Virus record (IMG/VR): IMGVR_UViG_649989946_000003
Strand: one strand, 5' to 3'
Length of the DNA stretch: 35,240 nucleotides
DNA from: a virus
Lineage: Duplodnaviria > Heunggongvirae > Uroviricota > Caudoviricetes
Numbering within the stretch: position 1 is the first letter of the stretch; every line of letters starts with the position of its first letter. Shown in pieces: positions 7,509-34,982 of the stretch. A model generated the notes under the pieces. It saw only the letters and a list, made by a program, of their open reading frames with translations, had not been told where the DNA came from and ran no database searches. The translations under genes and the position numbers were made by a program.

Positions 7509-7538
7509 CTGATGAACGTAAAAAACGTTTTACATCAG
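7509..7538 (+). terminator. imperfect hairpin downstream of gene A (possible terminator)
   Basis: CTGATGAACGT ... ACGTTTTACATCAG inverted repeat followed by an AT-rich tract. Confidence 0.3.
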
Positions 7539-15120: not shown

Positions 15121-15123
15121 ACC

Positions 15124-16537: not shown

Positions 16538-16540
16538 ATT

Positions 16541-16756
16541 ATGACGCTTGAGCGAATCAGCGCCTTTATCACGTATTGCATCGCCGTCGTGCTGGCCTGG
16601 CTGGGCGATTTGTCCATCAAGGATGCCTCAACGCTGGGCGGCCTGATGATCGGTGTGCTGATGCTGGCTATCAACTGGTACTACAAACACAAAGCCTACC
16701 AGCTTCTGCGCGACGGGCAGATCACGCGGGAGGACTATGAATCCATCAATCGTTAA
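16541..16756 (+). CDS. holin
   Basis: 71 aa with two hydrophobic transmembrane segments and a charged C-terminus, immediately upstream of the endolysin. Confidence 0.7.
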   Translation: MTLERISAFITYCIAVVLAWLGDLSIKDASTLGGLMIGVLMLAINWYYKHKAYQLLRDGQITREDYESINR

Positions 16757-17249
16757 ACGCTGCCTTGTCGGGACCGTGCTGGCTATTGCTGCCACGCTGC
16801 CGGGTTTTCAGCAGCTTCACACCTCCGTGGAGGGGCTGAAACTGATTGCCGATTACGAAGGCTGTCGTCTGCAGCCGTATCAGTGCAGCGCGGGTGTCTG
16901 GACCGACGGCATTGGTAATACGTCGGGCGTCATTCCCGGCAAAACCATTACGGAGCGACAGGCAGCGGAAGGGCTGATCTCCAACGTGCTGCGTGTGGAG
17001 CGGGCGCTGGAAAGGTGTGTGAAGCAACAGCCGCCGCAGAAGGTGTATGACGCGGTGGTGTCGTTTGCCTTCAACGTGGGAACGGGCAATGCCTGCAGTT
17101 CCACGCTGGTGAAATTACTCAATCAGCGGCGCTGGGCGGATGCGTGCCGACAGTTGCCGCGCTGGGTTTATGTAAAAGGTGTGTTTAATCAGGGGCTGGA
17201 TAACCGCCGTGCGCGGGAGATGGCCTGGTGTTTACAGGGAGCAAACTGA
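16737..17249 (+). CDS. endolysin (lysozyme-like, probable signal-anchor-release type)
   Basis: N-terminal hydrophobic SAR-like segment (CLVGTVLAIAATLPGF), then a lysozyme-like region (LIADYEGCRLQPYQCSAGVWTDGIGNT). RBS GGGAGGA. Confidence 0.85.
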   Translation: MNPSIVKRCLVGTVLAIAATLPGFQQLHTSVEGLKLIADYEGCRLQPYQCSAGVWTDGIGNTSGVIPGKTITERQAAEGLISNVLRVERALERCVKQQPPQKVYDAVVSFAFNVGTGNACSSTLVKLLNQRRWADACRQLPRWVYVKGVFNQGLDNRRAREMAWCLQGAN

Positions 17250-17250
17250 A

Positions 17251-17628
17251 ATGAAAAAGAAATTAATCAGCGGACTGTTTCTGATGTTATGGATGGCGCT
17301 GTTAATCGCAGCAATGGTGTATCCGCAGGGGATTTTTCCGGTACTGGCAGCATCTGGTGTCTGGGTAGCCTGTCTGCTGACATGGGTGGTAATTCCGGTA
17401 GCACTGGCTGCGTTAATTAAGAATGGCTCGCTCTGGCAGGAGTTGAGGGCATCTTTGCTGAAGACAATTACCCGAAAAGAAAACGTATTTATCAGCTGGG
17501 TGATGCGATTGCTGATTGTCGTAAGTCTCGCCTGGACGGGGTGGGCTATTACCCTGGTCTTTTATCTGCTGACCGTTATTGCCTTCTGGATCACCCGTAA
17601 TCAGATGGCGCAACAGGTAGCAGCATGA
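17251..17628 (+). CDS. lysA: LysA-like membrane lysis accessory protein
   Basis: 125 aa, multiple transmembrane segments; ATG at 17251 with AGGGAG upstream (ORF-track start at 17179 is an extension). Confidence 0.65.
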   Translation: MKKKLISGLFLMLWMALLIAAMVYPQGIFPVLAASGVWVACLLTWVVIPVALAALIKNGSLWQELRASLLKTITRKENVFISWVMRLLIVVSLAWTGWAITLVFYLLTVIAFWITRNQMAQQVAA

Positions 17629-18053
17629 ACCGGTTGCTGCTGGTTGTGCTGGCGTTATTACTGGCGGCGCTGGGCTGGCAGACGTGGCGGCTGGCTGATG
17701 CCAGCCAGACCATCAGCACGCAGGCAGACGAGCTGCAGCGCCAAAGCCAGGCACTGGCAAAGAGCAACAGCCAGCTTATCAGCCTGTCCATTCTGACTGA
17801 AACCAATAACCGGGAGCAGGCGCGGCTCTATGCCGACGCAGAACAGACCAGCGCACTGCTGAGACAACGACAACGCCGGATGGAGGAACTGAAACGTGAG
17901 AACGAGGATTTACGCCGCTGGGCTGATACTCCTTTGCCTGCTGACATTATCCGGCTGCGGGAACGTCCGGCACTCACCGGAGGTGCAGCTTACCGTCAGT
18001 GGTTGTCCGCGAGTGACGCCGTGTCGGCTGGATCAGGCAACGCCGCGCACTAA
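17625..18053 (+). CDS. lysB: LysB (Rz-like i-spanin)
   Basis: N-terminal transmembrane segment, then a coiled-coil-like Gln/Arg-rich periplasmic region; overlaps the lysA stop. Confidence 0.75.
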   Translation: MNRLLLVVLALLLAALGWQTWRLADASQTISTQADELQRQSQALAKSNSQLISLSILTETNNREQARLYADAEQTSALLRQRQRRMEELKRENEDLRRWADTPLPADIIRLRERPALTGGAAYRQWLSASDAVSAGSGNAAH

Positions 18054-18186
18054 TGGTGATCTGAACGCGTTGCTGGATGAAACGGAGGCCGCCTGGGCGG
18101 TCTGTGCAGACAAAGTGGACATGATTATTGCGTGTCAGGAGCGAAACAGTGAACAAACCACAATCCCTGCGCCACGCCCTCAATAA
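17896..18186 (+). CDS. lysC: LysC (Rz1-like o-spanin lipoprotein), embedded in and extending beyond lysB in another frame
   Basis: Lipobox LLTLSGC after a hydrophobic signal; GTG start with GGAGG RBS; 96 aa. Confidence 0.6.
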   Translation: MRTRIYAAGLILLCLLTLSGCGNVRHSPEVQLTVSGCPRVTPCRLDQATPRTNGDLNALLDETEAAWAVCADKVDMIIACQERNSEQTTIPAPRPQ

Positions 18187-18580
18187 AGCGGTGCCTTATG
18201 TCCGCAATAACCCGGACAAACTGCATCTGTTTGTGGATAACGGTTCGCTGGTTGCCACGGGGGCCAGCTCTATGTCGTGGGAGTACCGTTACACCCTGAA
18301 CGCGGTGATTGAGGATTTCAGCGGCGACCAGAATCTGCTGATGGCCCCGGTTTTGCTGTGGCTGAGGGATAACCAGCCCGATGCCATCAATAACCCGGCG
18401 TTACGGAAAAAACTATTCACCTTTGAGGTGGATATTCTGCGCAACGATGTCTGTGATATCAGCCTGAACCTGCAACTGACGGAGCGTGTGCTGGTCAGCA
18501 CTGACGGTAGTGTGTCGAGCGTTGAAGCTATAGCGGAACCTGATGAACCTGAAGAAATGTGGACGGTGAAACGTGGCTGA
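18149..18580 (+). CDS. R: tail completion protein R
   Basis: GTG at 18149 with AGGAG 7 nt upstream; P2 gpR position and size. Confidence 0.8.
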   Translation: MNKPQSLRHALNKAVPYVRNNPDKLHLFVDNGSLVATGASSMSWEYRYTLNAVIEDFSGDQNLLMAPVLLWLRDNQPDAINNPALRKKLFTFEVDILRNDVCDISLNLQLTERVLVSTDGSVSSVEAIAEPDEPEEMWTVKRG

Positions 18581-19019
18581 ACTGCAGAAAGTGGACGACT
18601 GGCTGAGTGCCTTGCTGGCGAATCTGGAACCAGCCGCCAGAAGCCGCATGATGCGCCAGCTGGCGCAGGAACTGCGCCGGACACAGCAGCAGAACATCAG
18701 GATGCAACTCAATCCTGATGGCAGCAGCTATGAACCGAGGCGAGTAACAGCACGCAGTAAAAAAGGCCGTATCAAACGGCAGATGTTTACAAAACTTCGC
18801 ACCACAAAATACCTGAAAACCGCCGCCAGCGAGGATTCTGCCAGCGTGCAGTTTGAAGGTAAGGTGCAGCGCATTGCCCGCGTTCACCATTATGGCCTGC
18901 GTGATCGCGTCAGCCGCAAAGGACCGGAGGTCCGTTACGCAGAGCGTCGCCTTCTGGGCGTAAATGATGATGTTGAGGCAATGACCCGCGACATGATTCT
19001 GCAATGGTTGGCGGGGTGA
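18573..19019 (+). CDS. S: tail completion protein S
   Basis: 148 aa, overlaps the R stop; P2 gpS position and size. Confidence 0.8.
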   Translation: MAELQKVDDWLSALLANLEPAARSRMMRQLAQELRRTQQQNIRMQLNPDGSSYEPRRVTARSKKGRIKRQMFTKLRTTKYLKTAASEDSASVQFEGKVQRIARVHHYGLRDRVSRKGPEVRYAERRLLGVNDDVEAMTRDMILQWLAG

Positions 19020-19023
19020 TTTT

Positions 19024-19041
19024 TGTACCAGCACTGATACA
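19024..19041. promoter_or_regulatory. Ogr/Delta-type late activator site (TGT-N12-ACA) for the V-W-J-I-H-G operon
   Basis: TGT (19024-19026) + 12 nt + ACA (19039-19041), about 50 nt upstream of V. Confidence 0.5.
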
Positions 19042-19087
19042 AGTTGCAGCACTGCCGCCTTTCTTCCCCTGATGGCAACCTTTCCCT

Positions 19088-19666
19088 ATGAACGCACAAT
19101 TAACCGAAATCATGCGCCTTATCACCAACCTGATCCGCACAGGTGTAGTCACCGAAGTGGACCGGGAAAACTGGCTTTGCCGGGTGAAAACAGGCGAGCT
19201 TGAAACCAACTGGATTAGCTGGCTGACGCTGCGTGCCGGGAATGCCCGGACATGGTGGCGACCATCGGAAGGTGAGCAGGTGGTGCTGCTGAGTCTGGGC
19301 GGTAATCTGGAAACAGCTTTTGCGCTGCCCGCCATCTATTCGAATCAGTTCGCACCACCGTCGACGTCGGCGGACGCCTGCGTGACAGAACATCCTGACG
19401 GTGGCTGGTTTGAATACGAACCCGCCACCGGGCGCTGGTATGTCAGGGGCATCAAATCCATGGTCATTGAGGCTGTCGACAACATCACCATGAAAACCAG
19501 TGAGTTTGTACTGGAGGCTGACCGCACGCGCATTAACAGCGAAGTGGTGATCAATGGTGGCGTTACCCAGGGCGGCGGAGCGATGAATTCTAACGGGATT
19601 GTGGTTGATGCGCATCAGCATACTGGCGTCCTGAAAGGCGGCGACACAACCGGAGGTCCGGTATGA
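19088..19666 (+). CDS. V: baseplate assembly/spike protein V
   Basis: 192 aa, first gene of the baseplate operon; P2 gpV position. Confidence 0.9.
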   Translation: MNAQLTEIMRLITNLIRTGVVTEVDRENWLCRVKTGELETNWISWLTLRAGNARTWWRPSEGEQVVLLSLGGNLETAFALPAIYSNQFAPPSTSADACVTEHPDGGWFEYEPATGRWYVRGIKSMVIEAVDNITMKTSEFVLEADRTRINSEVVINGGVTQGGGAMNSNGIVVDAHQHTGVLKGGDTTGGPV

Positions 19667-20022
19667 CGCTTTATAGCGGGATGAACAATACCAGCGGCAA
19701 AGCCATTACTGATATTGACCATCTGCGCCAGTCGGTTCGGGACATTCTGCTGACACCGCAGGGTAGCCGTATTGCCCGTCGGGAATATGGTTCCCTGCTG
19801 TCGGCACTGATAGACCAGCCACAAAATCCGGCATTACGCCTGCAGGTCATGTCGGCAGTGTATGTGGCGCTGAGTCGCTGGGAGCCACGGCTGACGCTGG
19901 ATTCCATCACCATTAACAGCAATTTTGACGGTTCAATGGTGGTGGAGCTGACCGGGCGGCGTAATAACGGTGTGCCTGTTTCCCTTTCCGTATCAACAGG
20001 AGCAGAGAATGGCAGTGATTGA
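19663..20022 (+). CDS. W: baseplate protein W (gp25-like)
   Basis: 119 aa, RBS GGAGG, overlaps the V stop. Confidence 0.9.
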   Translation: MTLYSGMNNTSGKAITDIDHLRQSVRDILLTPQGSRIARREYGSLLSALIDQPQNPALRLQVMSAVYVALSRWEPRLTLDSITINSNFDGSMVVELTGRRNNGVPVSLSVSTGAENGSD

Positions 20023-20917
20023 CCTTTCGCAGTTGCCTGCGCCGCAGATTGTGGATGTGCCGGACTTTGAGACGCTGCTTGCCGAACGCAAGGCCGAATT
20101 TGTGGCGCTTCATCCGAAAGATGAGCAGGAAGCAGTGATCCGCACGCTGGAACTGGAATCTGAACCCGTTACCAAATTGTTGCAGGAGAATGCTTACCGT
20201 GAGTTGCTTCTGCGCCAGCGCATTAACGAAGCCGCGCATGCTGTGATGGTGGCTTACGCGATGGGCGGCGATCTTGACCAGCTCGCTGCCAACTACAACG
20301 TGAAACGCCTGACGGTGACGCCTGCTGATAATGACGCTGTGCCACCCGTTGCGGCTGTGATGGAAAGCGATGAAGCGTTACGCCTGCGTGTGCCTGCGGC
20401 TTTTGAAGGGCTTTCGGTTGCGGGGCCAACCGCAGCTTATGAATTTCATGCCCGAAGCGCCGACGGTCGGGTGGCTGATGCCAGTGCAACCAGCCCGGCA
20501 CCTGCAGAGGTGGTACTGACTGTCCTTAGCCGCGAAGGCGACGGAACAGCAGAAAAAGACCTGCTGGATGTGGTGGAGAACGCCCTGAACAGTGAGAACG
20601 TCCGCCCGGTGGCTGACCGTCTGACGGTTCGCAGCGCAGAAATCATACCGTACCGCGTGGAAGCCACCATTTTTCTCTATCCGGGGCCGGAAGCAGAGCC
20701 GGTAATGGCAGCGGCAAAAGCCAGCCTGCAGAAGTACATCGCCAGTCAGACGCGGCTTGGTCGGGATATTCGCCGTAGCGCCATCTTTGCCGCCCTGCAT
20801 GTTGAGGGTGTGCAGCGTGTGGAGCTGGCTTCGCCGCTGGCGGATGTGGTTTTGAACAAAACGCAGGCGGCATCATGTACGGAGTGGAGCGTGACCAACG
20901 GGGGAACGGATGAATAG
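20009..20917 (+). CDS. J: baseplate assembly protein J
   Basis: 302 aa from the ATG at 20009 (AGGAG 7 nt upstream), the same length as P2 gpJ. Confidence 0.9.
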   Translation: MAVIDLSQLPAPQIVDVPDFETLLAERKAEFVALHPKDEQEAVIRTLELESEPVTKLLQENAYRELLLRQRINEAAHAVMVAYAMGGDLDQLAANYNVKRLTVTPADNDAVPPVAAVMESDEALRLRVPAAFEGLSVAGPTAAYEFHARSADGRVADASATSPAPAEVVLTVLSREGDGTAEKDLLDVVENALNSENVRPVADRLTVRSAEIIPYRVEATIFLYPGPEAEPVMAAAKASLQKYIASQTRLGRDIRRSAIFAALHVEGVQRVELASPLADVVLNKTQAASCTEWSVTNGGTDE

Positions 20918-21515
20918 TCTGCTGCCATCGGGGTCAACTTCACTGGAGCGCCGACTGGCGCAGACCTGTAGCGGGATTTCTGATCTGCAGGTGCCGCTGC
21001 GTGACTTGTGGAATCCGGCTACCTGCCCGGTCAGCTTCCTGCCTTATCTCGCCTGGGCGTTCTCTGTGGATCGCTGGGACGAAGGCTGGACAGAAAGCGT
21101 CAAGCGCCAGGTGGTGAAGGATGCTTTTTATATTCATCAGCATAAAGGGACCACCAGTGCCGTGCGGCGGGTGGTGGAGCCGTTCGGCTTTCTAATCCGC
21201 ATTATTGAGTGGTGGCAGACCGGAGAGGCACCGGGCACGTTTCGTCTGGATATCGGCGTGCAGGACCAGGGCATCACTGAAGATACCTATCTGGAACTTG
21301 AGCGGCTGATAAGCGATGCCAAACCATGTAGCCGTCACATGATCGGCATGTCCATCAATCTGCAGACCAGCGGTCCGCATTGGGTGGGGGCCGCCAGCTA
21401 TCTTGGCGAAGAAATCACGATCTATCCGTATATCAACGAAACAATTATTTCTGGCGGCACCGCGCATGAAGGCGGGGCGGTCCATGTTATTGACACAATG
21501 AGAGTGAATCCATGA
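20910..21515 (+). CDS. I: baseplate/tail protein I
   Basis: 201 aa, overlaps the J stop; P2 gpI position. Confidence 0.9.
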   Translation: MNSLLPSGSTSLERRLAQTCSGISDLQVPLRDLWNPATCPVSFLPYLAWAFSVDRWDEGWTESVKRQVVKDAFYIHQHKGTTSAVRRVVEPFGFLIRIIEWWQTGEAPGTFRLDIGVQDQGITEDTYLELERLISDAKPCSRHMIGMSINLQTSGPHWVGAASYLGEEITIYPYINETIISGGTAHEGGAVHVIDTMRVNP

Positions 21516-23053
21516 GCACAAAATTTTATACCCTGCTGACGGATATTGGCGCGGCGAAACTTGCCAGCGCCGCCGCGCTCGGTGTGCCGCTAAAAATTAC
21601 CCATATGGCGGTCGGCGATGGCGGCGGAGTATTGCCAACGCCAGACTCAAAGCAGACTGCACTGGTAAATGAGAAACGCCGGGCTGCGCTGAATATGCTC
21701 TATATCGACCCGCAGAACAGCAGCCAGATTATTGCCGAACAGGTGATCCCTGAAAACGAGGGCGGTTGGTGGATACGTGAAGTGGGCTTGTTTGATGAGT
21801 CCGGGGCATTGATTGCCGTGGGCAACTGCCCGGAAAGCTATAAGCCGCAACTGGCTGAAGGTAGCGGGCGCACTCAGACCGTGCGCATGGTGCTGATTAC
21901 CAGCAGCACGGACAATATCACCCTGAAAATCGACCCTGCCGTAGTGCTGGCAACCCGCAAGTATGTGGATGACAAGGCACTGGAGCTGAAGGTGTACGCG
22001 GATGATCAGATGGCAAAACATCTTGCCGCACCGGACCCGCATTCACAGTATGCACCCAAAGAAAGTCCGACGTTTACCGGGACACCCAAAGCGCCAACGC
22101 CAGCCGCAGGGAATAACACCACGCAGATTGCGACCACCGCGTTTGTTCAGGCGGCTCTGACGGCTCTTATTAATGGTGCGCCAGCCACGTTGGACACACT
22201 GAAAGAAATAGCCGCAGCCATTAACAATGATCCGAAATTCAGTACCACCATTAACAATGCGCTGGCACTGAAAGCGCCGCTGTCGAGTCCGGCACTCACC
22301 GGAACGCCAACCGCACCTACTGCGGCACAGTCGGTCAACAATACACAGATTGCCACCACGGCATTTGTGAAATCGGCGATTGCGGCAATGGTGGGTTCTG
22401 CACCTGCGGCACTGGATACACTGAACGAACTGGCGGCAGCGCTGGGGAATGACCCGAACTTTGCCACGACAATGCTTAATGCGCTGGCAGGTAAACAACC
22501 GCTGGACAATACGCTGACTAATTTGAGTGGAAAGGATGTAGCTGGTCTTCTCACATACCTTGGTTTGGGAGAAGGTTCGGCATTACCTGTTGGTGTACCT
22601 GTTCCATGGCCTTCAGCCATTCCGCCGACAGGCTGGCTGAAATGCAACGGTGCAGCTTTTTCTGCTGAAGAATACCCGGAACTGGCAAAGGCTTATCCGA
22701 CAAATAAATTGCCTGATTTACGTGGTGAGTTTATTCGTGGCTGGGATGACGGGCGTGGAGCTGACAGTGGTCGGGGATTATTAAGCTTTCAAAAAGCCAC
22801 TCTGGTTGAAAGTTTTGGTCTGGTCAGGTCACCAACCACTGGCTCTTATCGTCTGGTTACCAGACCGACAGAAACTGTTTCTGATAATACGTCTAACTAT
22901 ATGACGACTGATTATGATTCCCGTGAAGGTTTATATTCCTCTGCAACAGCATACCCCTCTATCGAATTGCCACCAACTGGAGCAGGCGCAGGGGCTGGTT
23001 TTAGGGTTCGACCAAGGAATATTGCATTTAACTATATTGTGAGGGCTGCATAA
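21512..23053 (+). CDS. H: tail fibre protein H (constant N-terminal part fused to the currently expressed variable C-terminal part)
   Basis: 513 aa; N-terminal virion-attachment region, tandem fibre repeats, C-terminal receptor-binding part. A hix-like crossover site lies inside the gene at 22549-22574. Confidence 0.9.
   Translation: MSTKFYTLLTDIGAAKLASAAALGVPLKITHMAVGDGGGVLPTPDSKQTALVNEKRRAALNMLYIDPQNSSQIIAEQVIPENEGGWWIREVGLFDESGALIAVGNCPESYKPQLAEGSGRTQTVRMVLITSSTDNITLKIDPAVVLATRKYVDDKALELKVYADDQMAKHLAAPDPHSQYAPKESPTFTGTPKAPTPAAGNNTTQIATTAFVQAALTALINGAPATLDTLKEIAAAINNDPKFSTTINNALALKAPLSSPALTGTPTAPTAAQSVNNTQIATTAFVKSAIAAMVGSAPAALDTLNELAAALGNDPNFATTMLNALAGKQPLDNTLTNLSGKDVAGLLTYLGLGEGSALPVGVPVPWPSAIPPTGWLKCNGAAFSAEEYPELAKAYPTNKLPDLRGEFIRGWDDGRGADSGRGLLSFQKATLVESFGLVRSPTTGSYRLVTRPTETVSDNTSNYMTTDYDSREGLYSSATAYPSIELPPTGAGAGAGFRVRPRNIAFNYIVRAA
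22117..22500 (+). repeat. tandem ~50-aa coding repeat inside tail fibre H
   Basis: Two copies of ...TQIATTAFV..A...GAPA.LDTL.E.AAA..NDP.F.TT..NALA.K.P... Confidence 0.5.
22549..22574 (+). repeat. left inversion crossover site (hix-like)
   Basis: TCTCACATACCTTGGTTTGGGAGAAG, inside H. Confidence 0.6.
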
Positions 23054-23655
23054 TGGATAACGCCATATTAAATAGCGAGATTATCGCCACCAAAGCAGGG
23101 AATATTACCGTCTATAACTATGATGGTGAAACTCGAGAATATATTTCCACTTCAAATGAATATCTTGCTGTTGGCGTCGGTATCCCTGCATATTCCTGTT
23201 TAGATGCCCCTGGCACACATAAGGCGGGTTATGCTATCTGCCGTTCGATGGATTTAAACTCATGGGAATATGTGCCAGACCATCGCGGTGAAATCGTCTA
23301 TAACACCGAAACGGGAGACGCAAAAGAAATCACAACTCCGGGTGATTACCCCGAAGAAACAACCACTATCGCCCCGTTAACGCCATACGATAAATGGGAT
23401 GGTGAAAAATGGGTGACAGATACTGAGGCACAATACGGTGCCGCAGTAGACGCGGCAGAAGCACAGCGCCAGTCACTGATTGATGCAGCAATGGCTTCCA
23501 TCAGTCTGATTCAACTGAAATTGCAGGCCGGACATAAACTGACGCAGGCAGAAACAACCAGACTTAACGCTGTGCTGGATTACATTGACGCGGTGACGGC
23601 AACAGATACCAGCACCGCGCCGGATGTCATCTGGCCTGAACTGCCGGAGGCGTAG
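23053..23655 (+). CDS. G: tail fibre assembly chaperone G
   Basis: 200 aa; start overlaps the H stop (TAATG). Confidence 0.85.
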   Translation: MDNAILNSEIIATKAGNITVYNYDGETREYISTSNEYLAVGVGIPAYSCLDAPGTHKAGYAICRSMDLNSWEYVPDHRGEIVYNTETGDAKEITTPGDYPEETTTIAPLTPYDKWDGEKWVTDTEAQYGAAVDAAEAQRQSLIDAAMASISLIQLKLQAGHKLTQAETTRLNAVLDYIDAVTATDTSTAPDVIWPELPEA

Positions 23656-24070
23656 GCCATTCAATATCTGGCGCACCGGAAGTATCGATCAGCTCCAGTG
23701 CGTCCAGATAATCCAGCCACAAATTATATTGCGCCAGTTCATCACCTTTCAGACGACCAATAGCGGCTTTGCCGGGCCATTGCTTACTGTTCATGTATTC
23801 GTTGGCCTGGTTAATTAGTAGCTGTCTTTCTGATTCAGTAATTTCAATAAGTTCTTCATGCGTGGGTGGAGGAATATCTGCCCACGCGGGCTGCCCATCA
23901 CCTCCGGCAATACGGATTTTTCCTTGTGGCGGTTCAGCCATAAATTCACTGATAATATTTTGATTCACCTCTTTAGCATCTGATAAATCCCATCCCTCTG
24001 ATTTATATTTATCAATCATATCCACAGGGAAAAAAGCATTATGCCTTGCGCTATAAACATATTCGTTCAT
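23627..24070 (-). CDS. alternative tail fibre assembly chaperone (G')
   Basis: 147 aa from the ATG at 24070, convergent with and overlapping G; conserved C-terminal Tfa-like motif (YNLWLDYLDALELIDTSGAPDIEWP, compare G: LNAVLDYIDAVTATDTSTAPDVIWP). Confidence 0.8.
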   Translation of the reverse strand: MNEYVYSARHNAFFPVDMIDKYKSEGWDLSDAKEVNQNIISEFMAEPPQGKIRIAGGDGQPAWADIPPPTHEELIEITESERQLLINQANEYMNSKQWPGKAAIGRLKGDELAQYNLWLDYLDALELIDTSGAPDIEWPTPPAVQAR

Positions 24071-24090
24071 ATAAATCACCCTTAATAAAA

Positions 24091-24464
24091 TTACTCACCA
24101 ACAGCCCACCAACTGTAATTCATCGATACTGTGGAACTGGTTGATGCAGTTCTGTAAGCGGAATTAAAACCGGTTAATGTTGGACCTTCTGCGGTCATCA
24201 CGAATCCCCGTCCAGCACCTAAAGGTGCACCACCATCACCAGAATGAGTAAGCATGGCGCAGTCCACTTTTTTAGGAAAAGGGATGCTGAATGTAATTCT
24301 CATTGTTTGCGTCGATAATGTCGGCGTAACCGCACCTCGACCATATTGCAGGATTTTACCGTTGGGTAATTTCATCCATCCATCACCACTGGCAAAAGAA
24401 GCCATATCCGGTATCTGATTTTCCCCTGTTCCCACATCCCGTTTTGCCGCTTCTCCCAAACCAA
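24091..24464 (-). CDS. alternative tail fibre C-terminal segment (promoterless; expressed only after inversion)
   Basis: Minus-strand ORF ending at 24091, entering at the right crossover site where the shared GLGE junction codons lie. Confidence 0.65.
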
Positions 24465-24475
24465 CGTTTAAGAAA
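24450..24475 (-). repeat. right inversion crossover site (hix-like, inverted relative to the left site)
   Basis: Reverse complement reads TTTCTTAAACGTTGGTTTGGGAGAAG. Confidence 0.6.
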
Positions 24476-24531
24476 ATGCAGCGATTACGGCTAACTGGCA
24501 TCATCCCCTATTTTTATTCAGGGAGATGATC

Positions 24532-25097
24532 ATGCTTATTGGCTATGTACGCGTGTCAACAAATGACCAGAACACCGATTTGCAACGTAATGCGCTGAAC
24601 TGCGCGGGATGTGAGCGGATTTTTGAGGACAAAATCAGTGGCACTAAGTCCGACAGACCGGGGCTTAAAAAACTGCTCAGGACACTATTGGCAGGAGACA
24701 CGCTGGTTGTCTGGAAGCTGGACAGGTTGGGGCGCAGTATGCGGCATCTTGTTACGCTGATAGAAGAGTTGCGCCAGCGTGGTGTGAATTTCCGAAGCCT
24801 GACTGACAGTATTGATACCAGTACCCCAATGGGCCGTTTCTTTTTCATGTCATGGGTGCCCTGGCTGAAATGGAACGCGAACTGATAGTTGAACGTACCC
24901 GGGCAGGGCTGGCTGCAGCTCGTGCTAAAGGCAGAGTAGGTGGACGCCGTCCTAAGTTGACCACTGAACAGTGGGCACAGATTGGACGTTTACTCGAGGC
25001 CGGAGAATCAAGACAGCGTATTGCACTGATTTTTGATGTAGGCGTTTCTACCATTTATCGAAAATTTCCGGCAAATAAGAGCAATAAATCTCCCTGA
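24532..25097 (+). pseudogene. pin: Pin/Hin/Gin-family serine DNA invertase, split by a 1-nt frameshift in a T5 run (about 24841-24845)
   Basis: N-terminal part MLIGYVRVSTNDQNTDLQRNAL... stops after ...SIDTSTPMGRFFF; the continuation MGALAEMERELIVERTRAGLAAARAKGR... is in the next frame (ORFs 24526..24885 and 24852..25097). One extra T would restore the GRFFFHVMGALAEME junction recalled from e14 Pin. Confidence 0.8.
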
Positions 25098-25145
25098 ATC
25101 AGCTTTATTTTGATTATCCCTGAAAGCAGACAAATACCGTCATTT

Positions 25146-25163
25146 TGTGTGAATAACGGTACA
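25146..25163. promoter_or_regulatory. Ogr/Delta-type late activator site (TGT-N12-ACA) for the FI-FII-E-T-U-D operon
   Basis: TGT (25146-25148) + 12 nt + ACA (25161-25163), about 80 nt upstream of FI. Confidence 0.5.
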
Positions 25164-25239
25164 ACTGCGCTTAGCTGTTTGTCAGGCACAATCACTTCAA
25201 CATAGGGCGAAGCCTAATCCAATCAGGAGGTTCGCCACT

Positions 25240-26411
25240 ATGGCTCAGGATTACCACCACGGGGTGCGCGTTGTTGAAGTCAACGAAGGCACCCGATCCA
25301 TTACCACGGTGAGCACCGCCATCGTGGGTATGGTCTGCACGGGCGATGATGCCGATGCAAAAATGTTTCCTCTTAATAAACCCGTGCTGATCACTGATGT
25401 GCTGACTGCCAGCGGTAAAGCGGGTGAGTCCGGCACGCTGGCCCGTTCGCTGGATGCCATCGCTGACCAGGCAAAACCCGTGACCGTTGTTGTGCGTGTG
25501 CCGCAGGGTGAAACGGAAGAAGAAACCACGACCAATATCATCGGCGCAGTGACTGCTGAAGGTAAAAAACAGGCATGAAAGCTCTGTTATCTGCTCAGTC
25601 ACAGCTCGGCGTTAAACCGCGCATTCTGGGTGTACCAGGTCACGACACCAAGGCGGTAGCTACTGAGTTGCTGAGTGTGGCGCAAAGCCTGCGTGGGTTT
25701 GCTTACCTGTCAGCGTATGGCTGCAAGACTGTGCAGGAGGCAATCACTTACCGTGAAAACTTCAGCCAGCGCGAAGGGATGCTGATCTGGCCCGACTTTA
25801 CTGGCTGGGACACGGTGCTGAATGCCGAAGCAACGGCATATGCCACCGCCCGTGCGCTTGGTCTGCGTGCCAAAATTGATGAGCAGACCGGGTGGCACAA
25901 AAGCCTGTCCAACGTGGGCGTGAACGGTGTCACCGGAATTTCTGCTGATGTGTTCTGGGATCTGCAGGACCCGGCAACCGATGCGGGACTGCTTAACCAG
26001 AACGACGTCACCACGCTTGTGCGCAAGGATGGTTTCCGCTTCTGGGGTTCCCGCTGTCTGAGCGATGATCCGCTTTTTGCCTTCGAAAACTACACCCGCA
26101 CAGCGCAGGTACTGATGGACACAATGGCAGAAGCACATATGTGGGCGGTGGACAAACCGCTGAACCCGTCGCTGGCCCGCGACATTATCGAAGGTATCCG
26201 CGCCAAAATGCGCAACCTGGTCAGTCAGGGCTATCTCATTGGTGGTGATTGCTGGCTGGATGAGTCGGTGAACGACAAAGACACGCTGAAAGCCGGAAAA
26301 CTCACCATCGACTATGACTACACGCCAGTGCCGCCACTTGAAAATCTGATGCTGCGCCAGCGCATCACCGATCAGTACCTGGTGAATTTCGCCAGCCAGG
26401 TCAGCGCGTAA
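25240..26411 (+). pseudogene. FI: tail sheath protein FI, split by a 1-nt frameshift in an A6 run (25564-25569); may be a sequencing error
   Basis: ORF 25240..25578 matches my recollection of the P2 sheath N-terminus and ORF 25575..26411 the remainder (...[21 protein letters not shown]...). A seventh A would give in-frame ...[15 protein letters not shown]... Confidence 0.8.
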
Positions 26412-26420
26412 GGGGACAAC

Positions 26421-26936
26421 ATGGCTTTACCACGCAAATTAAAACATCTGAACTTGTTTAACGACGGGAACAACTGGCAGGGGATCGTTGAGTCGCTGAC
26501 GCTGCCGAAATTCACCCGCAAATATGAGAAGTATCGCGGCGGCGGTATGCCGGGGGCGGTGGATGTGGATTTGGGACTGGATGACAGTGCACTGGATACA
26601 GAATTTTCCATTGGTGGTACTGAGCTGCTGCTGTTTAAGCAGATGGGCAAAGCCACGGTGGATGGTATCCAGTTGCGCTTTACCGGCTCTATCCAGCGTG
26701 ATGATACCGGAGAAGTGCAGGCCGTGGAGCTTGTGGTGCGTGGGCGTCACAAAGAAGTGGATTCCGGCGAGTGGAAGACGGGCGAAAGCAACACCACCAA
26801 AGTGACCAGTACCAACAGCTACGCGAAGCTGACCATCAATGGTGAGGTGCTCTATGAAGTGGACCTTATCAACATGGTGGAAATTGTGGACGGTGTGGAC
26901 CTGATGGAAGCGCACCGCAACGCCCTCGGCCTCTGA
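26421..26936 (+). CDS. FII: tail tube protein FII
   Basis: 171 aa immediately after the sheath gene, RBS AGGGGA. Confidence 0.9.
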   Translation: MALPRKLKHLNLFNDGNNWQGIVESLTLPKFTRKYEKYRGGGMPGAVDVDLGLDDSALDTEFSIGGTELLLFKQMGKATVDGIQLRFTGSIQRDDTGEVQAVELVVRGRHKEVDSGEWKTGESNTTKVTSTNSYAKLTINGEVLYEVDLINMVEIVDGVDLMEAHRNALGL

Positions 26937-26947
26937 TGTATCTGAAC

Positions 26948-26965
26948 GGCGCGGAATGCCGCGCC
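26948..26965 (+). terminator. GC hairpin between FII and E (attenuator/terminator candidate)
   Basis: GGCGCGG aatg CCGCGCC, 7-bp GC stem with tetraloop; no obvious U-tract. Confidence 0.35.
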
Positions 26966-26990
26966 AGAACCTAATTTACAGGACAACAAA

Positions 26991-27293
26991 ATGAGCGATA
27001 AACAGACTGAAAAGACCATTCAACTGGATACCCCCATCATGCGCGGTAAAACAGAAATTACCGAAATTGTGCTGCGTAAACCGCAGTCCGGTGCGCTGCG
27101 CGGTACACGCCTGCAGGCCATTATGGATATGGATGTAAACGCGATGATGACCGTGATCCCCCGCATCTCCAGTCCGGCACTGACTGCGCAGGAAATTGCA
27201 GAGATGGACCCGGCAGATCTCACTGCCATGTCGGTTGAGGTTGTCACTTTTTTGTTGAAGAAGTCGGTGCTTGCCGGTTTACCGACAGCCTGA
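26991..27293 (+). CDS. E: tail assembly chaperone E
   Basis: 100 aa; slippery run T6G at 27248-27254 near the 3' end. Confidence 0.85.
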   Translation: MSDKQTEKTIQLDTPIMRGKTEITEIVLRKPQSGALRGTRLQAIMDMDVNAMMTVIPRISSPALTAQEIAEMDPADLTAMSVEVVTFLLKKSVLAGLPTA

Positions 27294-27427
27294 CGGTTGA
27301 CGATCTGGTGGCTGATATCGCCACCATCTTTCACTGGCCGCCATCCGTTACTGACGTTATGCCGCTGACCGAAGTGCTGGAATGGCGGTATAAAGCGATT
27401 CAGAGAAGCGGGGCCAACGATGAGTGA
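26991..27427 (+). CDS. E+E' tail chaperone made by programmed -1 translational frameshift at T6G
   Basis: After a -1 shift at the T TTT TTG heptamer the -1 frame stays open to the TGA at 27425-27427, overlapping the start of T. Conserved E/E' arrangement in P2-like phages. Confidence 0.6.
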
Positions 27428-30400
27428 TAATAACCTGCGCCTGCAGGTCATTCTTAATGCGGTTGACAAACTCACCCGCCCATTCCGTGCTGCACAGGCC
27501 AGTTCGAAAGAGCTGGCTGGCGCAATCAGAAACTCCCGTGACGCATTAAAGCAACTCAATCAGGCGGGTAACAGCCTGGAAAAATTTCGCAAGCTGCAGG
27601 CCGATAACAAAAAGTTAGGCGACAGGCTGAACTATGCCAGACAGAAGGCAAATTTGCTTAGTTCTGAGCTGGAAGCGATGGAACAACCATCACAACGGCA
27701 CCTTGTGGCTTTAGGTCGGCAAACGCTGGCAGTCCAACGCCTGGAAGAACAACAAAAATATTTGCAGAAGCAAACGGCGCTTGTGCGTGCAGAACTGTAC
27801 CGGGCGGGAATTTCTGCGAAAGATGATGCGGGAGCAACTGCCCGTTTAGCCCGTGAAACATCACGTTATAACCAGGAACTGTCGAAACAGGAGGCGCGGC
27901 TGAAGCGACTGGGGGAAGCTCAGCGCAGGATGAATGCAGCGCGTGCCAGTTATGCCCGTTCGCTGGAGGTGCGCGATCGCATCGCAGGAACCGGAGCCAC
28001 CACCACGGCGGCAGGGCTGGCAATGGGGACGCCAGTGATGGCGGCAGTAAAAAGCTATACCAGCATGGAAGATGCCATGAAAGGTGTGGCAAAGCAGGTC
28101 AATGGTCTGCGTGACGATAATGGCAACCGCACTGCACGTTTTTATGAAATGCAGGATGCCATCAAAGCTGCCAGCGAACAGTTGCCGATGGAAAACGGTG
28201 CGGTGGACTTCGCTGCACTGGTTGAAGGTGGTGCGCGTATGAACGTTGCAAACCCTGACGACAGCTGGGAGGACCAGAAACGTGACCTGCTGGCCTTCGC
28301 CAGTACGGCGGCAAAGGCGGCAACAGCCTTTGAGCTGCCAGCGGATGAACTGTCAGAAAGTCTGGGGAAAATCGCCCAGCTCTACAAAATCCCTACCCGC
28401 AATATTGAACAGCTCGGTGATGCGCTGAACTATCTGGATGATAACGCCATGTCGAAAGGGGCAGACATCATTGATGTCATGCAACGCCTGGGCGGTGTGG
28501 CTGATCGTCTGGATTATCGTAAAGCGGCGGCGCTGGGTTCCACCTTCCTGACACTGGGCGCTGCGCCAGAGGTTGCAGCCAGTGCAGCAAACGCGATGGT
28601 GCGTGAATTGTCCATTGCCACCATGCAGAGCAAGAGTTTCTTTGAAGGGATGAATCTGCTGAAACTCAATCCTGAAGTGATTGAAAAGCAGATGACGAAG
28701 GATGCGATGGGAACCATCCAGCGCGTGCTGGAGAAGGTGAACGCGCTGCCGCAGGATAAGCGCCTGTCTGCCATGACCATGTTGTTTGGTAAAGAGTTTG
28801 GCGATGACGCGGCGAAACTGGCAAACAACCTGCCGGAACTGCAGCGCCAGCTAAAACTGACAGCGGGCAATGATGCGCTCGGTTCCATGCAGAAAGAATC
28901 CGACATCAACAAAGACTCACTTTCTGCTCAGTGGTTGCTGGTCAAAACCGGAGCGCAGAACACCTTCAGCAGCCTGGGCGAAACGCTGCGCCAGCCGCTG
29001 ATGGATATTCTGTTCACGGTGAAAAGCGTCACGGGGGCGTTGCGTCGCTGGGTGGAAGCTAACCCGGAACTGACGGGCACACTGATGAAAGCGGCGGCTG
29101 TTGTGGCTGCGGTTACCGTGGGCCTCGGCACCTTAGCGGTGGTGTTAGCTGCAGTGCTGGGGCCGCTGGCAGTGATCCGTCTGGGGTTCTCTGTGCTGGG
29201 TATCAAAACGTTACCTTCCGTTACGGCAGCAGTAACTCGAACCAGCAGCGCGTTGTCCTGGCTGGCTGGCGCACCACTGGCACTGCTGCGACGCGGGCTT
29301 GCTTCATCGGGCCACGCTGCGGGTTTACTTACTGCGCCGTTGTCGTCTTTGCGCCGCACGGCATCACTGACGGGAAATGTCCTGAAAACTGTAGCAGGTG
29401 CGCCGGTTGCACTTTTGCGGTCTGGATTATCCGGTTTACGTGCTGTTGCTGTGATGTTTATGAATCCTCTGGCGGTACTGCGTGGTGGACTGGCCGCCGC
29501 AGGCACGGTGCTGCGAGTACTGGCATCTGGTCCACTGGCGATGCTGCGCGTTGCCCTGTATGCCGTATCTGGTCTGTTAGGTGCTCTGCTCAGTCCGATA
29601 GGTCTTGTGGTTACTGCACTGGCGGGCGTGGCGCTGGTTGTCTGGAAATACTGGCAACCCATCACCGCATTTCTTGGTGGCGTGGTGGAAGGATTCAAAG
29701 CGGCGGCAGGTCCCGTCAGTGCAGCATTCGAACCGCTTAAGCCCGTGTTCCAGTGGATTGGCGACAAAGTACAGGCGCTGTGGGGCTGGTTTACTGATCT
29801 GCTGACGCCCGTTAAGTCAACCTCTGCCGAACTGCAGAGTGCAGCGGCAATGGGGCGGCGATTCGGGGAGGCACTGGCGGAAGGGCTGAATATGGTCATG
29901 CATCCGCTGGACTCCCTGAAATCCGGCGTTTCCTGGTTGCTGGAGAAACTCGGCGTTGTCAGTAAAGAGGCCGCAAAGGCGAAACTACCGGAAAGTGTGA
30001 CGCGTCAGCAACCTGCGACGGTGAATACAAACGGTAAAGTGATGATGCCATCGGGTGGTTTTCCGTCATGGGGATATGGCATTGCGGGGATGTATGACAG
30101 CGGCGGCTATATCCCGCGCGGGCAGTTTGGCATCGTCGGTGAAAACGGGCCGGAAATTGTTAACGGCCCGGCAAATGTGACCAGCCGGAGAAATACAGCT
30201 GCACTGGCTGCCGTTGTTGCCGGAATGATGGGCGTTGCTGCCGCGCCTGCAGAGCTTCCACCGTTGCATCCTTTGGCACTTCCCGCGAAAGGCGGCGAAG
30301 CGATGGTGAGTCGTGCAGCCACTGTGCCGCCCGTTTACAGGATTGAGGCACCGACGCAGATCATCATTCAGATGCAGCCAGGACAAAGTGCGCAGGATAT

Positions 30401-30497
30401 TGCGCGGGAGGTGGCACGCCAGCTTGATGAACGTGAACGCAGGCTGAAGGCAAAAGCCAGGAGTAACTACAGCGATCAGGGGGGATACGACGCATGA
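27420..30497 (+). CDS. T: tail tape measure protein
   Basis: 1025 aa, Ala/Leu-rich, coiled-coil-like N-terminus, internal degenerate repeats, directly downstream of E/E'. Confidence 0.9.
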   Translation: MSDNNLRLQVILNAVDKLTRPFRAAQASSKELAGAIRNSRDALKQLNQAGNSLEKFRKLQADNKKLGDRLNYARQKANLLSSELEAMEQPSQRHLVALGRQTLAVQRLEEQQKYLQKQTALVRAELYRAGISAKDDAGATARLARETSRYNQELSKQEARLKRLGEAQRRMNAARASYARSLEVRDRIAGTGATTTAAGLAMGTPVMAAVKSYTSMEDAMKGVAKQVNGLRDDNGNRTARFYEMQDAIKAASEQLPMENGAVDFAALVEGGARMNVANPDDSWEDQKRDLLAFASTAAKAATAFELPADELSESLGKIAQLYKIPTRNIEQLGDALNYLDDNAMSKGADIIDVMQRLGGVADRLDYRKAAALGSTFLTLGAAPEVAASAANAMVRELSIATMQSKSFFEGMNLLKLNPEVIEKQMTKDAMGTIQRVLEKVNALPQDKRLSAMTMLFGKEFGDDAAKLANNLPELQRQLKLTAGNDALGSMQKESDINKDSLSAQWLLVKTGAQNTFSSLGETLRQPLMDILFTVKSVTGALRRWVEANPELTGTLMKAAAVVAAVTVGLGTLAVVLAAVLGPLAVIRLGFSVLGIKTLPSVTAAVTRTSSALSWLAGAPLALLRRGLASSGHAAGLLTAPLSSLRRTASLTGNVLKTVAGAPVALLRSGLSGLRAVAVMFMNPLAVLRGGLAAAGTVLRVLASGPLAMLRVALYAVSGLLGALLSPIGLVVTALAGVALVVWKYWQPITAFLGGVVEGFKAAAGPVSAAFEPLKPVFQWIGDKVQALWGWFTDLLTPVKSTSAELQSAAAMGRRFGEALAEGLNMVMHPLDSLKSGVSWLLEKLGVVSKEAAKAKLPESVTRQQPATVNTNGKVMMPSGGFPSWGYGIAGMYDSGGYIPRGQFGIVGENGPEIVNGPANVTSRRNTAALAAVVAGMMGVAAAPAELPPLHPLALPAKGGEAMVSRAATVPPVYRIEAPTQIIIQMQPGQSAQDIAREVARQLDERERRLKAKARSNYSDQGGYDA
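29260..29570 (+). repeat. degenerate tandem coding repeats within the tape measure gene
   Basis: About five copies of a roughly 21-aa unit with core (A/G)PLAxLRxGL. Confidence 0.45.
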
Positions 30498-30979
30498 TGA
30501 TGGTGCTGGGATTGTACGTGTTTATGCTGCGCACCGTTCCGTATCAGGAACTGCAGTATCAACGCAGTTGGCGACATGCGGCAAACAGCCGGGTAAACCG
30601 TCGTCCGTCCACGCAGTTTCTGGGACCGGACAACGACATGCTGACGCTTTCTGGTGTTCTTATGCCGGAGATAACGGGCGGCAGGCTGTCGTTGCTGGCT
30701 CTGGAGCAGATGGCAGAACAGGGAAAAGCATGGCCCCTGATTGAAGGCAGCGGCACGATTTACGGCATGTATGTGATTGAGGGACTGAATCTGACTAAAA
30801 CGGAGTTTTTCCGCGACGGTATGCCGCGGCGGATTGAGTTCACCCTGTCGCTCAAACGGGTGGATGAATCCCTGTCCGATATGTTCGGTGATCTCAGTAC
30901 GCAACTGAATAATCTGCAGGACACGGCAACATCTGCCTTAAGTGATATCAGTAAAACGGTGGGAGGGCTGCTGTCGTGA
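30494..30979 (+). CDS. U: tail protein U
   Basis: 161 aa overlapping the T stop; P2 gpU size and position. Confidence 0.85.
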   Translation: MMMVLGLYVFMLRTVPYQELQYQRSWRHAANSRVNRRPSTQFLGPDNDMLTLSGVLMPEITGGRLSLLALEQMAEQGKAWPLIEGSGTIYGMYVIEGLNLTKTEFFRDGMPRRIEFTLSLKRVDESLSDMFGDLSTQLNNLQDTATSALSDISKTVGGLLS

Positions 30980-32076
30980 ATTTCAGCTCTGAACTGCTTA
31001 ACAAAGGCAACAAAACTCCCGCATTCAGCATCAGTATTGAGGGCAGGGATATCACCACTGTGCTGGATAACCGCCTGATGAGGCTGACGCTGACGGATAA
31101 CCGGGGCTTTGAAGCGGACCAGCTTGATCTGGAGCTGGACGACGCCGATGGAAAAATAGCGCTGCCGCGCCGTGGTGCGGTCATTACGCTGGCGCTGGGC
31201 TGGAAGGGGCAGCCGCTTTTCCCGAAAGGGGCATTCACGGTGGACGAGATTGAACACACTGGCGCACCGGACCGCCTGACTATCCGGGCGCGAAGTGCTG
31301 ATTTTCGTGAAACGCTGAATACCCGCCGTGAAAAGTCGTGGCACAAGACCACTGTCGGGGAAGTGGTCAAGGAAATAGCCGCGCGTCACAAGCTGAAGAT
31401 GGCACTGGGTAATGACCTGTCGGATAAGCCCGTGGAACATATAGACCAGACTAATGAGAGTGACGGCAGTTTTCTGATGCGGCTGGCGCGCCAGTACGGT
31501 GCTATCGCGTCAGTGAAAAATGGCAATCTGTTATTCATCCGACAGGGACAGGGTAAAAGTGCCAGCGGTAAACCACTGCCGGTGATCACTATCACACGTA
31601 AGGACGGCGACAGTCACCGCTTTACCCTGGCAGATCGCGGAGCTTACACGGGCGTAATTGCCAGCTGGTTGCATACTCGCGAACCCTCGAAGAAAGAAAG
31701 CACCACGGTGAAGCGTAAGCGCAGGACTAAGAAGCAGAAGAAAGAGCCGGAAGCGAAGCAGGGCGATTACCTGGTGGGTACGGATGAAAACGTGCTGGTA
31801 CTTAATCGCACTTATGCCAACCGGAGCAACGCCGAACGAGCGGCGAAAATGCAGTGGGAACGCCTGCAACGCGGCGTTGCGTCATTCTCGCTACAACTGG
31901 CGGAAGGTCGGGCAGATCTCTACACGGAAATGCCAGTGAAAGTCAGTGGCTTTAAACAGCCGATAGATGATGCGGAATGGACCATTACGACTCTGACGCA
32001 TACCGTCAGCCCGGATAACGGTTTTACGACCAGTCTGGAGCTTGAAGTGAGGATTGATGATTTCGAAATGGAATGA
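30976..32076 (+). CDS. D: tail protein D (late control gene D)
   Basis: 366 aa, GTG start with GGGAGGG RBS, overlaps the U stop; P2 gpD position. Confidence 0.9.
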   Translation: MNFSSELLNKGNKTPAFSISIEGRDITTVLDNRLMRLTLTDNRGFEADQLDLELDDADGKIALPRRGAVITLALGWKGQPLFPKGAFTVDEIEHTGAPDRLTIRARSADFRETLNTRREKSWHKTTVGEVVKEIAARHKLKMALGNDLSDKPVEHIDQTNESDGSFLMRLARQYGAIASVKNGNLLFIRQGQGKSASGKPLPVITITRKDGDSHRFTLADRGAYTGVIASWLHTREPSKKESTTVKRKRRTKKQKKEPEAKQGDYLVGTDENVLVLNRTYANRSNAERAAKMQWERLQRGVASFSLQLAEGRADLYTEMPVKVSGFKQPIDDAEWTITTLTHTVSPDNGFTTSLELEVRIDDFEME

Positions 32077-32166
32077 TTCTTCGCAATGGAGAACTTTTAA
32101 GTTTGCAAAATGGAATAATGCGGTATCATTATTGTGAATTTAGCAAAAATGGGGAGAACTCGAAAA

Positions 32167-32385
32167 ATGATGATTTGCCCACTGTGTGGAAGTGCCGCCC
32201 ATACTCGCAGCAGTTTTCAGGTATCTTCATTGACCAAAGAGCGTTACAACCAGTGCCAGAATATTAACTGCAGCCATACTTTTGTTACCCATGAAACTTT
32301 TGTTCGTTCGATTGCAACGCCAAAAGAGTCAAATCCGGTTCAGCCGCATCCAATGAAATCAGGACAGGTGGCGCTCTCTCTTTGA
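32167..32385 (+). CDS. ogr: Ogr/Delta-family zinc-finger late transcription activator
   Basis: CPLCGSAAHTR...KERYNQCQNINCSHTF closely matches my recollection of P2 Ogr (CPLCQHAAHAR...KERYHQCQNVNCSATF). Last phage gene before the host junction. ATG at 32167 or 32170. Confidence 0.85.
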   Translation: MMICPLCGSAAHTRSSFQVSSLTKERYNQCQNINCSHTFVTHETFVRSIATPKESNPVQPHPMKSGQVALSL

Positions 32386-32464
32386 CGCTGCCGCCATTTT
32401 GTCGCCATCGTTAAAAAACAGTGCTTCTAACCTCATGATTTTAAATAGAATAAATTTTAGGCAA

Positions 32465-32508
32465 CAAAAAACCCATCAACCTTGAACCGAAATGGCGGGG
32501 TTGATGGG
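32465..32508 (-). terminator. rho-independent terminator candidate for ybjL, at or near the prophage/host junction
   Basis: 10-bp stem CCCATCAACC / GGTTGATGGG (32472-32481 / 32499-32508) with a structured loop, followed on the minus strand by a U6 tract. Confidence 0.45.
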
Positions 32509-32620
32509 CTCCACAAAATGGGGACATCAAAGAAAAGCAGTGGCACTAATTAAGACTGATGCCCTGCGGAAAAGTTCTGCGGTTGTGCAAAAAAATTTCA
32601 TTTTCAGGGCAACTTCAGTT

Positions 32621-34306
32621 TTATCCTAATCCTGGCCATACCATGACGATGATTGTCCCTGCCAGCGTCAGCAGGACGTTGGCGATTGCATAGGTGCCCG
32701 CATAGCCCAGCGCCGGGATGTTACTGCGAGCTGTATCACTGATGATCTCCATTGCCGGCGCGCAGGTACGTGCGCCCATCATTGCGCCGAACAACAGCGC
32801 GCGGTTCATTCGCAATACATAAGCACCGAACAAGAAACAGATAACCACGGGCACCAGACTGACAATCAATCCGGCAATCAACATCTGACCGCCAATCGCG
32901 CCCAAGCCGTTATTAATACCGCTACCGGCGCTCAGACCAACGCCTGCCATAAACACCATCAAGCCGAACTCTTTCACCATGCTTAATGCACCCTGCGGAA
33001 TGTAACCGAAGGTCGGGTGGTTAGCACGCATAAAGCCCAGCATAATTCCGGCGAATAACAACCCGGCAGCGTTCCCCATGCCGAAACTGAATGTGCTGAA
33101 CTGGAAGGTGATCATCCCGATCATCAGCCCAATAACAAAGAAGGCGCAAAATGCCAGCAGGTCAGTGACCTGGCTGTGAATCGAGATAAAGCCGATGCGA
33201 TCGGCGATGGTTTTTACGCGACGGGCATCACCGCTGACTTGTAAAACGTCACCTTTGTTAAGCACGACGTTGTCATCTATCGGCATCTCAATCTGGCTAC
33301 GAATGACGCGGTTAAGGAAGCAACCGTGATCGGTCAACTTCAGTTGTGCGAGACGTTTACCTACAGCGTTATGGTTTTTAACGACCACTTCTTCAGTGAC
33401 GATACGCATGTCGAGAAGGTCACGATCGAAAACTTCTTTACCGTTACGGAAGCTGGGATCGAGTCGGGCATGGGCGTCGGGATAGCCTACCAACGCTATT
33501 TCATCGCCCATTTGTAGCACGGCATCACCGTCTGGATTTGCCAGAATCCCGTTACGTCGAATACGTTCAATGTAGCAGCCGGTTTGTCGATAAATACCCA
33601 GTTCACGCAGATTTTTGCCGTCGGTCCAGGCCACCAGCTCCGGGCCGACGCGATAGGCGCGGATCACCGGTAAATAAACCTTACGGTTGGCATCAGTGTC
33701 CAGGCCACGTTCGCGGGCGATTTGCTGGGCGCTGGTCTGTAAGTCCTGATGCTGCAATTTCGGCAAGTAACGCGCACCAACAATCAAACTCACCAGACCG
33801 ATTAAATAGGTTAAGGCATACCCGAGGCTCAGATTATCCAGTGCCAGTGAGAGCTGCCTGCTTTCCATGCCGGAATGACGCAGTGTATCGCCAGCACCGA
33901 CCAGAACCGGTGTCGACGTCATAGAGCCTGCTAACATACCGGCCGTCAGGCCAATATCCCAGCCAAACAGCTTACCTAACCCTAAGGCGATCACCAGCGC
34001 ACTGCCAACCATCACCAGTGCTAACATTAGGTAATTTTTCCCATCGCGAAAAAAAATGGAAAAAAAGTTCGGTCCGGCTTCAACCCCAACACAGAAAATA
34101 AACAGCATAAAGCCAAGATTAAGCGCATCGGTGTTAATGCTGAAATGTTGTTGGCCTAATAACAGCGATACGACTAAAACGCCAATGGAATTACCCAGTT
34201 GGATCGAACCAAGTCGTAACTTTCCGAGACATAGCCCAAGCGCGAGGACCACAAATAATAACAGAATGTAATTCCCATTTAACAATTCGGCGACGTTTAT
34301 ATTCAC
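32621..34306 (-). CDS. ybjL: host putative transporter YbjL (AAE-family permease with internal TrkA-C-like domains)
   Basis: 561-aa membrane protein recognised as E. coli YbjL ([30 protein letters not shown]...). Confidence 0.9.
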
Positions 34307-34575
34307 GGAGGCTAACTTCTTGTTTACTAGTAAGCTGTTGAAAGAAATGGTAATTTACGATAATGTTTTTTACCAGAATTCAGGGCGCAGATTCATTCAG
34401 CGCACCTAAACGATAGTAAAGTAACAATATATTTTACTAGTGTAATCACATTAGGTATCAACGGCTATATGAATTGCGTTGGCCTATATTAGCATGGAAT
34501 GCGAAGCGGCTTTATCTTACTGAACGCCACACTGGCGAAAAATGTGTTCGATAGACGCAGTGTCAGGAGGAACGA

Positions 34576-34973: not shown

Positions 34974-34982
34974 GTCAGACGA

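Follow-up and report, generated by a model that had tools for sequence, protein, structure and literature searches.

A one-base deficit in an A-run splits the tail sheath gene of an Escherichia coli 1827-70 prophage: most probably a homopolymer miscall of the draft genome

In the P2/186-like prophage of Escherichia coli 1827-70, the tail sheath gene is assembled as two open reading frames (ORFs) because a homopolymer is one A short, and this missing A is very probably a sequencing or assembly artefact of the draft genome consensus. The A-run would have been undercalled in the draft consensus of the strain, contig ADUK01000019.1, and the real prophage probably carries seven A's (A7) in the sheath gene and six T's (T6) in the DNA invertase gene, where a second run is also one base short. 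The prophage would then be an ordinary, intact P2/186-like element, in which a single gene encodes the 390-aa sheath and the invertase is functional. Most probably, the organism itself thus has no such frameshift, and we judge the interruption of the sheath frame to be a fault of the assembly, not of the gene.

The window, i.e., the whole stretch of DNA analysed here (35,240 nt), holds a complete P2/186-like prophage situated between rcdA and ybjL. The element includes integrase, CI, CII, Fil, replication endonuclease, cargo, portal, terminase, capsid and lysis genes, then the baseplate genes, an invertible fibre segment, the invertase, FI, FII, E/E', the tape measure, U, D and ogr; ybjL, ybjM and grxA, which come after it, belong to the chromosome. 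Except for the sheath and the invertase, there is no broken gene in the window. Over positions 15240-35240 (20,001 nt), the window matches contig ADUK01000019.1 (assembly GCA_000165655.2, E. coli 1827-70) with 100% identity; this assembly is a whole-genome-shotgun draft whose proteins EFQ01888, EFQ01890 and EFQ01891 name the strain, the record of EFQ01890.1 being entitled “major tail sheath domain protein [E. coli 1827-70]”. The coordinates of the split genes, of the runs concerned and of the neighbouring tail tube gene are collected in Table 1.

Table 1. Position in the window of the split sheath and invertase genes, the contracted A-runs and the tail tube gene.
Feature	Position	Strand	Description
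Intergenic A6	7520..7525	+	A7 in nearest relatives; loop of palindrome AACGT-A6-ACGTT, downstream of replication gene
Invertase, N-terminal fragment	24532..24885	+	117 aa as called; frameshift at T5, 24841-24845
Invertase, C-terminal fragment	24852..25097	+	81 aa; HTH_7
Sheath ORF1	25240..25578	+	112 aa: native residues 1-110, then Q-A-stop; Pfam Gp18_domIII_N; EFQ01890.1
A6 run, site of the 1-nt deficit	25564..25569	+	A7 in relatives
Sheath ORF2	25575..26411	+	278 aa: native Met113 to native stop; Pfam Phage_sheath_1, Phage_sheath_1C; EFQ01891.1
Tail tube gene, FII homologue	26421..26936	+	Intact, directly 3' of sheath; Pfam Phage_tube

The initial annotation had described the sheath gene as split by a 1-nt frameshift in an A6 run, with two ORFs that are together collinear with a full-length P2-type sheath and one added A restoring the frame, and this description holds. 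The run is read as GGT AAAAAA CAGGCATGA, and the zero-frame reading across the break is GCT GAA GGT AAA AAA CAG GCA TGA AAG. ORF2 is shifted by -1 with respect to the frame of ORF1, the two overlap by ATGA, and jointly they are without native residues T111 and G112 only. With one A added, a 390-aa sheath is obtained that is identical to the intact sheaths of the sister prophages L023 and L001 and contains the Pfam domains Gp18_domIII_N, Phage_sheath_1 and Phage_sheath_1C; its residues 5-383 align end to end with residues 3-381 of the R-type pyocin sheath PA0622 (E = 2e-69). These three domains are the ones found in P2 gpFI and PA0622 (PDB 3J9Q), and the gene order sheath-tube-E-E'-tape measure-U-D-ogr of the prophage is that of P2. 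Domain content, full-length collinearity and the P2 tail operon context (FI-FII-E-E'-T-U-D) are therefore those of a P2-type sheath; unlike gpFI and PA0622, the gene as assembled here is in two pieces, its single frame being split at the A6.

The relatives aligned at this site all carry A7 within a single gene of 1173 nt, encoding 390 aa. By megablast of positions 25200-26420, the region was found in 1,015 of 5,426 complete E. coli genomes and, among the matches listed, each exceeds the query in length by one base and carries the annotation “phage tail sheath protein” for one undivided gene. Isolated Peduoviridae also possess an unsplit sheath gene, the closest being that of Escherichia phage Cartapus (Elveevirus), with 97.1% DNA identity across the gene.

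This conservation bears directly on the idea that the split is tolerated or decoded, through a -1 ribosomal or transcriptional slip or as a two-chain sheath of the kind known from type VI secretion, an idea that we regard as hardly credible. It is true that a -1 slip of the second Lys-tRNA on AAA AAA would yield the native G-K-K-T-G-M exactly, that an extra A inserted by RNA polymerase would likewise restore the native sequence, and that the ATGA stop/start overlap could permit re-initiation at native Met113. However, the relatives are in frame with A7 and the two-frame arrangement is not conserved; the zero frame reads GGU AAA AAA CAG, with a U before the run in place of the canonical X XXY YYZ heptamer, and neither mark of a programmed frameshift is thus present. 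Furthermore, the break is located just upstream of the conserved TG(M/L)xALL motif, where the Phage_sheath_1 domain begins. Slippage on six A's is expected at about a percent or less, far below what would be required for a protein that each virion contains in hundreds of copies; the A6, if real, would be a leaky null. Both the programmed-frameshift and the split-sheath readings were consequently rejected, given that the arrangement is unconserved in relatives. A site in the same operon, likewise of homopolymer type, is the programmed -1 site of P2 E/E', which is conserved in all relatives and has a canonical heptamer, whereas the relatives read through the sheath A-run in frame and this run is not a programmed site. 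In the window, the E/E' site is intact: a T_TTT_TTG heptamer is found at 27248-27254, near the end of gene E (26991-27293), and the GpE-family E' frame lies downstream (27308-27427).

A second homopolymer frameshift had been noted in a T-run of the invertase gene, and it too is present: the window has T5 where the relatives have T6, and one restored T gives a 188-aa invertase with Resolvase and HTH_7 domains, identical to the protein of L023. The identity of both proteins to intact ones, once a single base is restored in each gene, favours a miscall of both runs. The gene adjoins a 1.9-kb fibre segment (22575-24449) flanked by 27-nt inverted repeats (22548-22574 and 24450-24476), in which alternative fibre and chaperone genes are arranged on opposite strands. 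With the window as reference, L016, L023, L037 and L038 carry this segment inverted, and L018 and L019 uninverted; the occurrence of both orientations among near-identical prophages indicates that the invertase has been active very recently in the lineage, which is another point in favour of an artefact. The combination of a Resolvase domain, a C-terminal HTH and an adjoining inverted-repeat-flanked segment is that of serine DNA invertases of the Gin/Hin family. The restored protein shares the two domains, the flanked fibre segment and the two orientations with Gin/Cin/Pin/Hin-type invertases, in contrast to which the gene as assembled here is split at the T-run.

Sister copies of the prophage were reached by look-ups of the window proteins gpD, integrase, cargo protein and tape measure. 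Over window positions 24450-32400, L037 (DABBCT010000008.1) and L041 (JAMEQK010000026.1) show 0 substitutions and differ from the window in two homopolymer gaps only; the same two gaps, again with 0 substitutions, are the only differences of L023 (CP126294.1) over 24450-27406. All three carry T6 and A7, with both genes intact. L019 (CP099281.1) has 4 substitutions in addition to the same two gaps over 20978-32400, and L024 differs over 1-16698 by 2 substitutions and the A-run at 7520. Set against its nearest relatives, the window thus shows single-base deletions (3) and substitutions in about equal number; each of the 3 deletions is the loss of one base in an A/T run of 6-7, and no other isolated indel is found in the window. 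Little weight attaches to the intergenic A-run at 7520, A6 being a natural allele there: it occurs in 33 RefSeq genomes, and the loop length of the palindrome concerned (7510-7535) is naturally polymorphic. The fact that otherwise identical prophage copies differ only at the sheath and invertase homopolymers argues for an artefact.

The same comparison weighs against a real and very recent slippage in 1827-70, in which one A and one T would have been lost, perhaps owing to a mismatch-repair defect. This reading is unlikely: it is possible, especially in a mismatch-repair mutator, yet much less likely than an artefact. It would make the prophage freshly tail-defective, with its fibre orientation locked and its other genes and TIR cargo intact, and it can draw on the fact that mutability in the sheath and invertase genes is highest at runs of 6-7, homopolymer runs being natural hot spots of genuine slippage. 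On the other hand, two rare events, independent of each other and 724 bp apart, would be required, against a background of 0 substitutions in 8 kb relative to three copies. A pseudogene would be expected to have its lesion in common with near-identical copies or to be accompanied by other lesions; here the copies are intact, and only the invertase is also broken.

The frequency of the contracted alleles was assessed with probes of 48 and 49 nt, for which only the contracted allele supplies the 28-nt exact word that megablast requires; 60-nt probes could not tell A6 from A7 plus one SNP by identity band. As the short probes miss contracted alleles on divergent haplotypes, the denominators that follow refer to the matching haplotype only. 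The A6 sheath allele occurs in 1 RefSeq complete E. coli genome (JNEC-KY174, where the sheath gene is annotated “frameshifted”) of about 300-700 with the matching haplotype, and the T5 invertase allele likewise in 1 of about 620. An exact-pattern scan did not find the A6 allele in a collection of species-representative genomes, to which the source does not belong as a representative genome. This near-absence of the alleles from high-quality complete genomes favours the artefact; under real slippage, the presence of each allele in about one of several hundred finished genomes would have to be accommodated.

In a much larger, unfiltered collection, the exact 112-aa product was found in 69 contigs (111 blocks), spread over six or more local haplotypes and two sites of integration (ybjL; ssrA/smpB). 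Many of the carriers are drafts of the 2010-11 accession series or long-read assemblies rich in single-base errors; in assemblies of the latter type, isolated single-base indels, mostly in homopolymer runs, amount to 23 (L005) and 16 (L011) per 20 kb. The core gene ybjL is broken at its A8 run in L006 (18810) and L005 (18807), and in L016 it is lost through single-base deletions at and beside the adjacent A8 and A7 runs (about window 34049-34066); these breaks look like clear assembly errors in the records concerned. The recurrence of the 112-aa product in early drafts and error-rich long-read assemblies is a further point in favour of an artefact in 1827-70. In L008 (a GGA variant), the sheath run shows an apparent A8 contracted to A7.

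Not every occurrence is of this kind. A6 is the sole lesion in the otherwise clean assemblies L007, L010, L013, L014 and L015, and these, together with the RefSeq genome JNEC-KY174, suggest that some natural A6 alleles probably exist; this counts against the artefact and for real slippage in 1827-70 as well. A bolder proposal is that the A7 is a recurrent mutational weak point and that the A6 and T5 of 1827-70 are real, representing a first step of domestication taken independently in several lineages. We hold this to be improbable.

Independent information is provided by the Logan de Bruijn assembly of SRR040453, which is, together with the source contig, one of the only two places where the truncated invertase fragment was found. 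The low run number suggests that SRR040453 is the original read set of strain 1827-70. Logan contig SRR040453_264 matches window 14532-25569 with 100% identity, and its end falls precisely on 25569, i.e., on the sixth A. A de Bruijn contig terminates where the next base is ambiguous, and the stop at the sixth A suggests conflicting reads at this point; we infer that the reads continue both as AAAAAA-A and as AAAAAA-C, in a mixed pile-up. That an assembly made independently from what appears to be the read set stops at the A-run argues for a miscall and against real slippage. The invertase run is a different matter, since the Logan contig passes it as T5, unbroken, and the reads of SRR040453 appear consistent there, mostly with T5; this is the main point for a real change at the invertase run, and is also what a real slippage would predict. 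From coordinates alone, and under the assumption that the window and the unseen part of the Logan contig are collinear, the opposite end of this contig can be placed at about position 9609, within the T6 run (9607-9612) of the TIR gene; in that case, both ends of the contig would lie at homopolymers.

A contig that stops at the run is also compatible with two real alleles, that is, with a truly mixed culture of A6 and A7 cells, in which the run would act as a low-grade on/off switch of the tail and the assembler would have taken A6. The recurrence of the lesion across haplotypes could be read in the same way. Nevertheless, with 7 bases the tract is short by the standards of contingency loci, and the A-run is simply two preferred Lys codons followed by ACA; A7 is essentially invariant in hundreds of finished genomes, and homopolymer read noise gives the same contig break. 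A phase-variable tract would be expected to vary in length among close relatives, whereas there is one contracted allele in several hundred finished genomes. A mixed culture is accordingly very improbable.

Regarding the source of a miscall, the accession series suggests a date of around 2010 for the ADUK01 assembly, and an early platform of the pyrosequencing type was probably used for the reads; the genomes of the ADUK01 project were presumably pyrosequenced. Of the approximately 45 genes in the window, 2 are affected, in each case at an A/T run of 6-7. Homopolymer errors of 454 assemblies have been described in 2-3% of genes, with an A/T bias and a frequency rising with run length (PMC3277595). 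The two frameshifts resemble the errors of 454 and early long-read data in several respects: the change is the same, a single base in A/T runs of 6-7, artificial frameshifts arise in a few percent of the genes, and the alleles are likewise absent from the finished genomes of the element while recurring in error-prone assemblies. They differ from them in that the platform is here deduced, and in that other long runs of the window are correct: seven other A/T runs of 7-8 are uncontracted, four of them in the chromosomal flank, and this counts against the artefact.

Thus, of the two possibilities raised at the outset, sequencing error or early decay of the prophage, error is strongly favoured, and decay by frameshift is disfavoured, as near-identical copies are intact. 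Decay itself is not foreign to this family, and the decay of prophages at the same locus in relatives has to be placed on the side of real slippage. It proceeds by large deletions, though, and not by point frameshifts, which again speaks against slippage as the origin of the A6 and T5. An identical deletion of 9,277 bp, corresponding to window 16699-25975 (from the holin gene to the middle of the sheath gene), is found at the same chromosomal site in three different assemblies (L020, L024/L040 and L039); two further and different internal deletions occur in L023, and L001 is missing most of the head and tail genes. The family thus decays by large deletions, with the cargo kept in sister prophages. 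The suggestion that the window represents a domesticated defence island with a null sheath finds no support for this copy, since near-identical copies are intact and the alleles are nearly absent from finished genomes.

The distinction has practical consequences. If the frameshifts are artefacts, the “split genes” of 1827-70 and their pseudogene-like annotation should not be given a biological meaning, and surveys of prophages or defence islands should count the prophage as intact. If they are real, they would constitute a modest case of early prophage inactivation at a slippery run, involving no new mechanism, which could nonetheless help thinking on the fixation of cargo-carrying prophages; were A6 and T5 both real, the prophage would have been caught at the first step of domestication, tail-dead and fibre-locked, with its TIR-containing cargo intact.

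The cargo itself consists of two genes (7972-9129 and 9433-10230) located at the P2 hot spot between the replication and portal genes. The product of 386 aa has no Pfam or PADLOC match and is present in 436 blocks of the collection, and the product of 266 aa contains a TIR_2 domain and gives weak PADLOC matches (TIR-NLR, PDC-S66, ThsB). The pair is retained in the deleted sister prophages.
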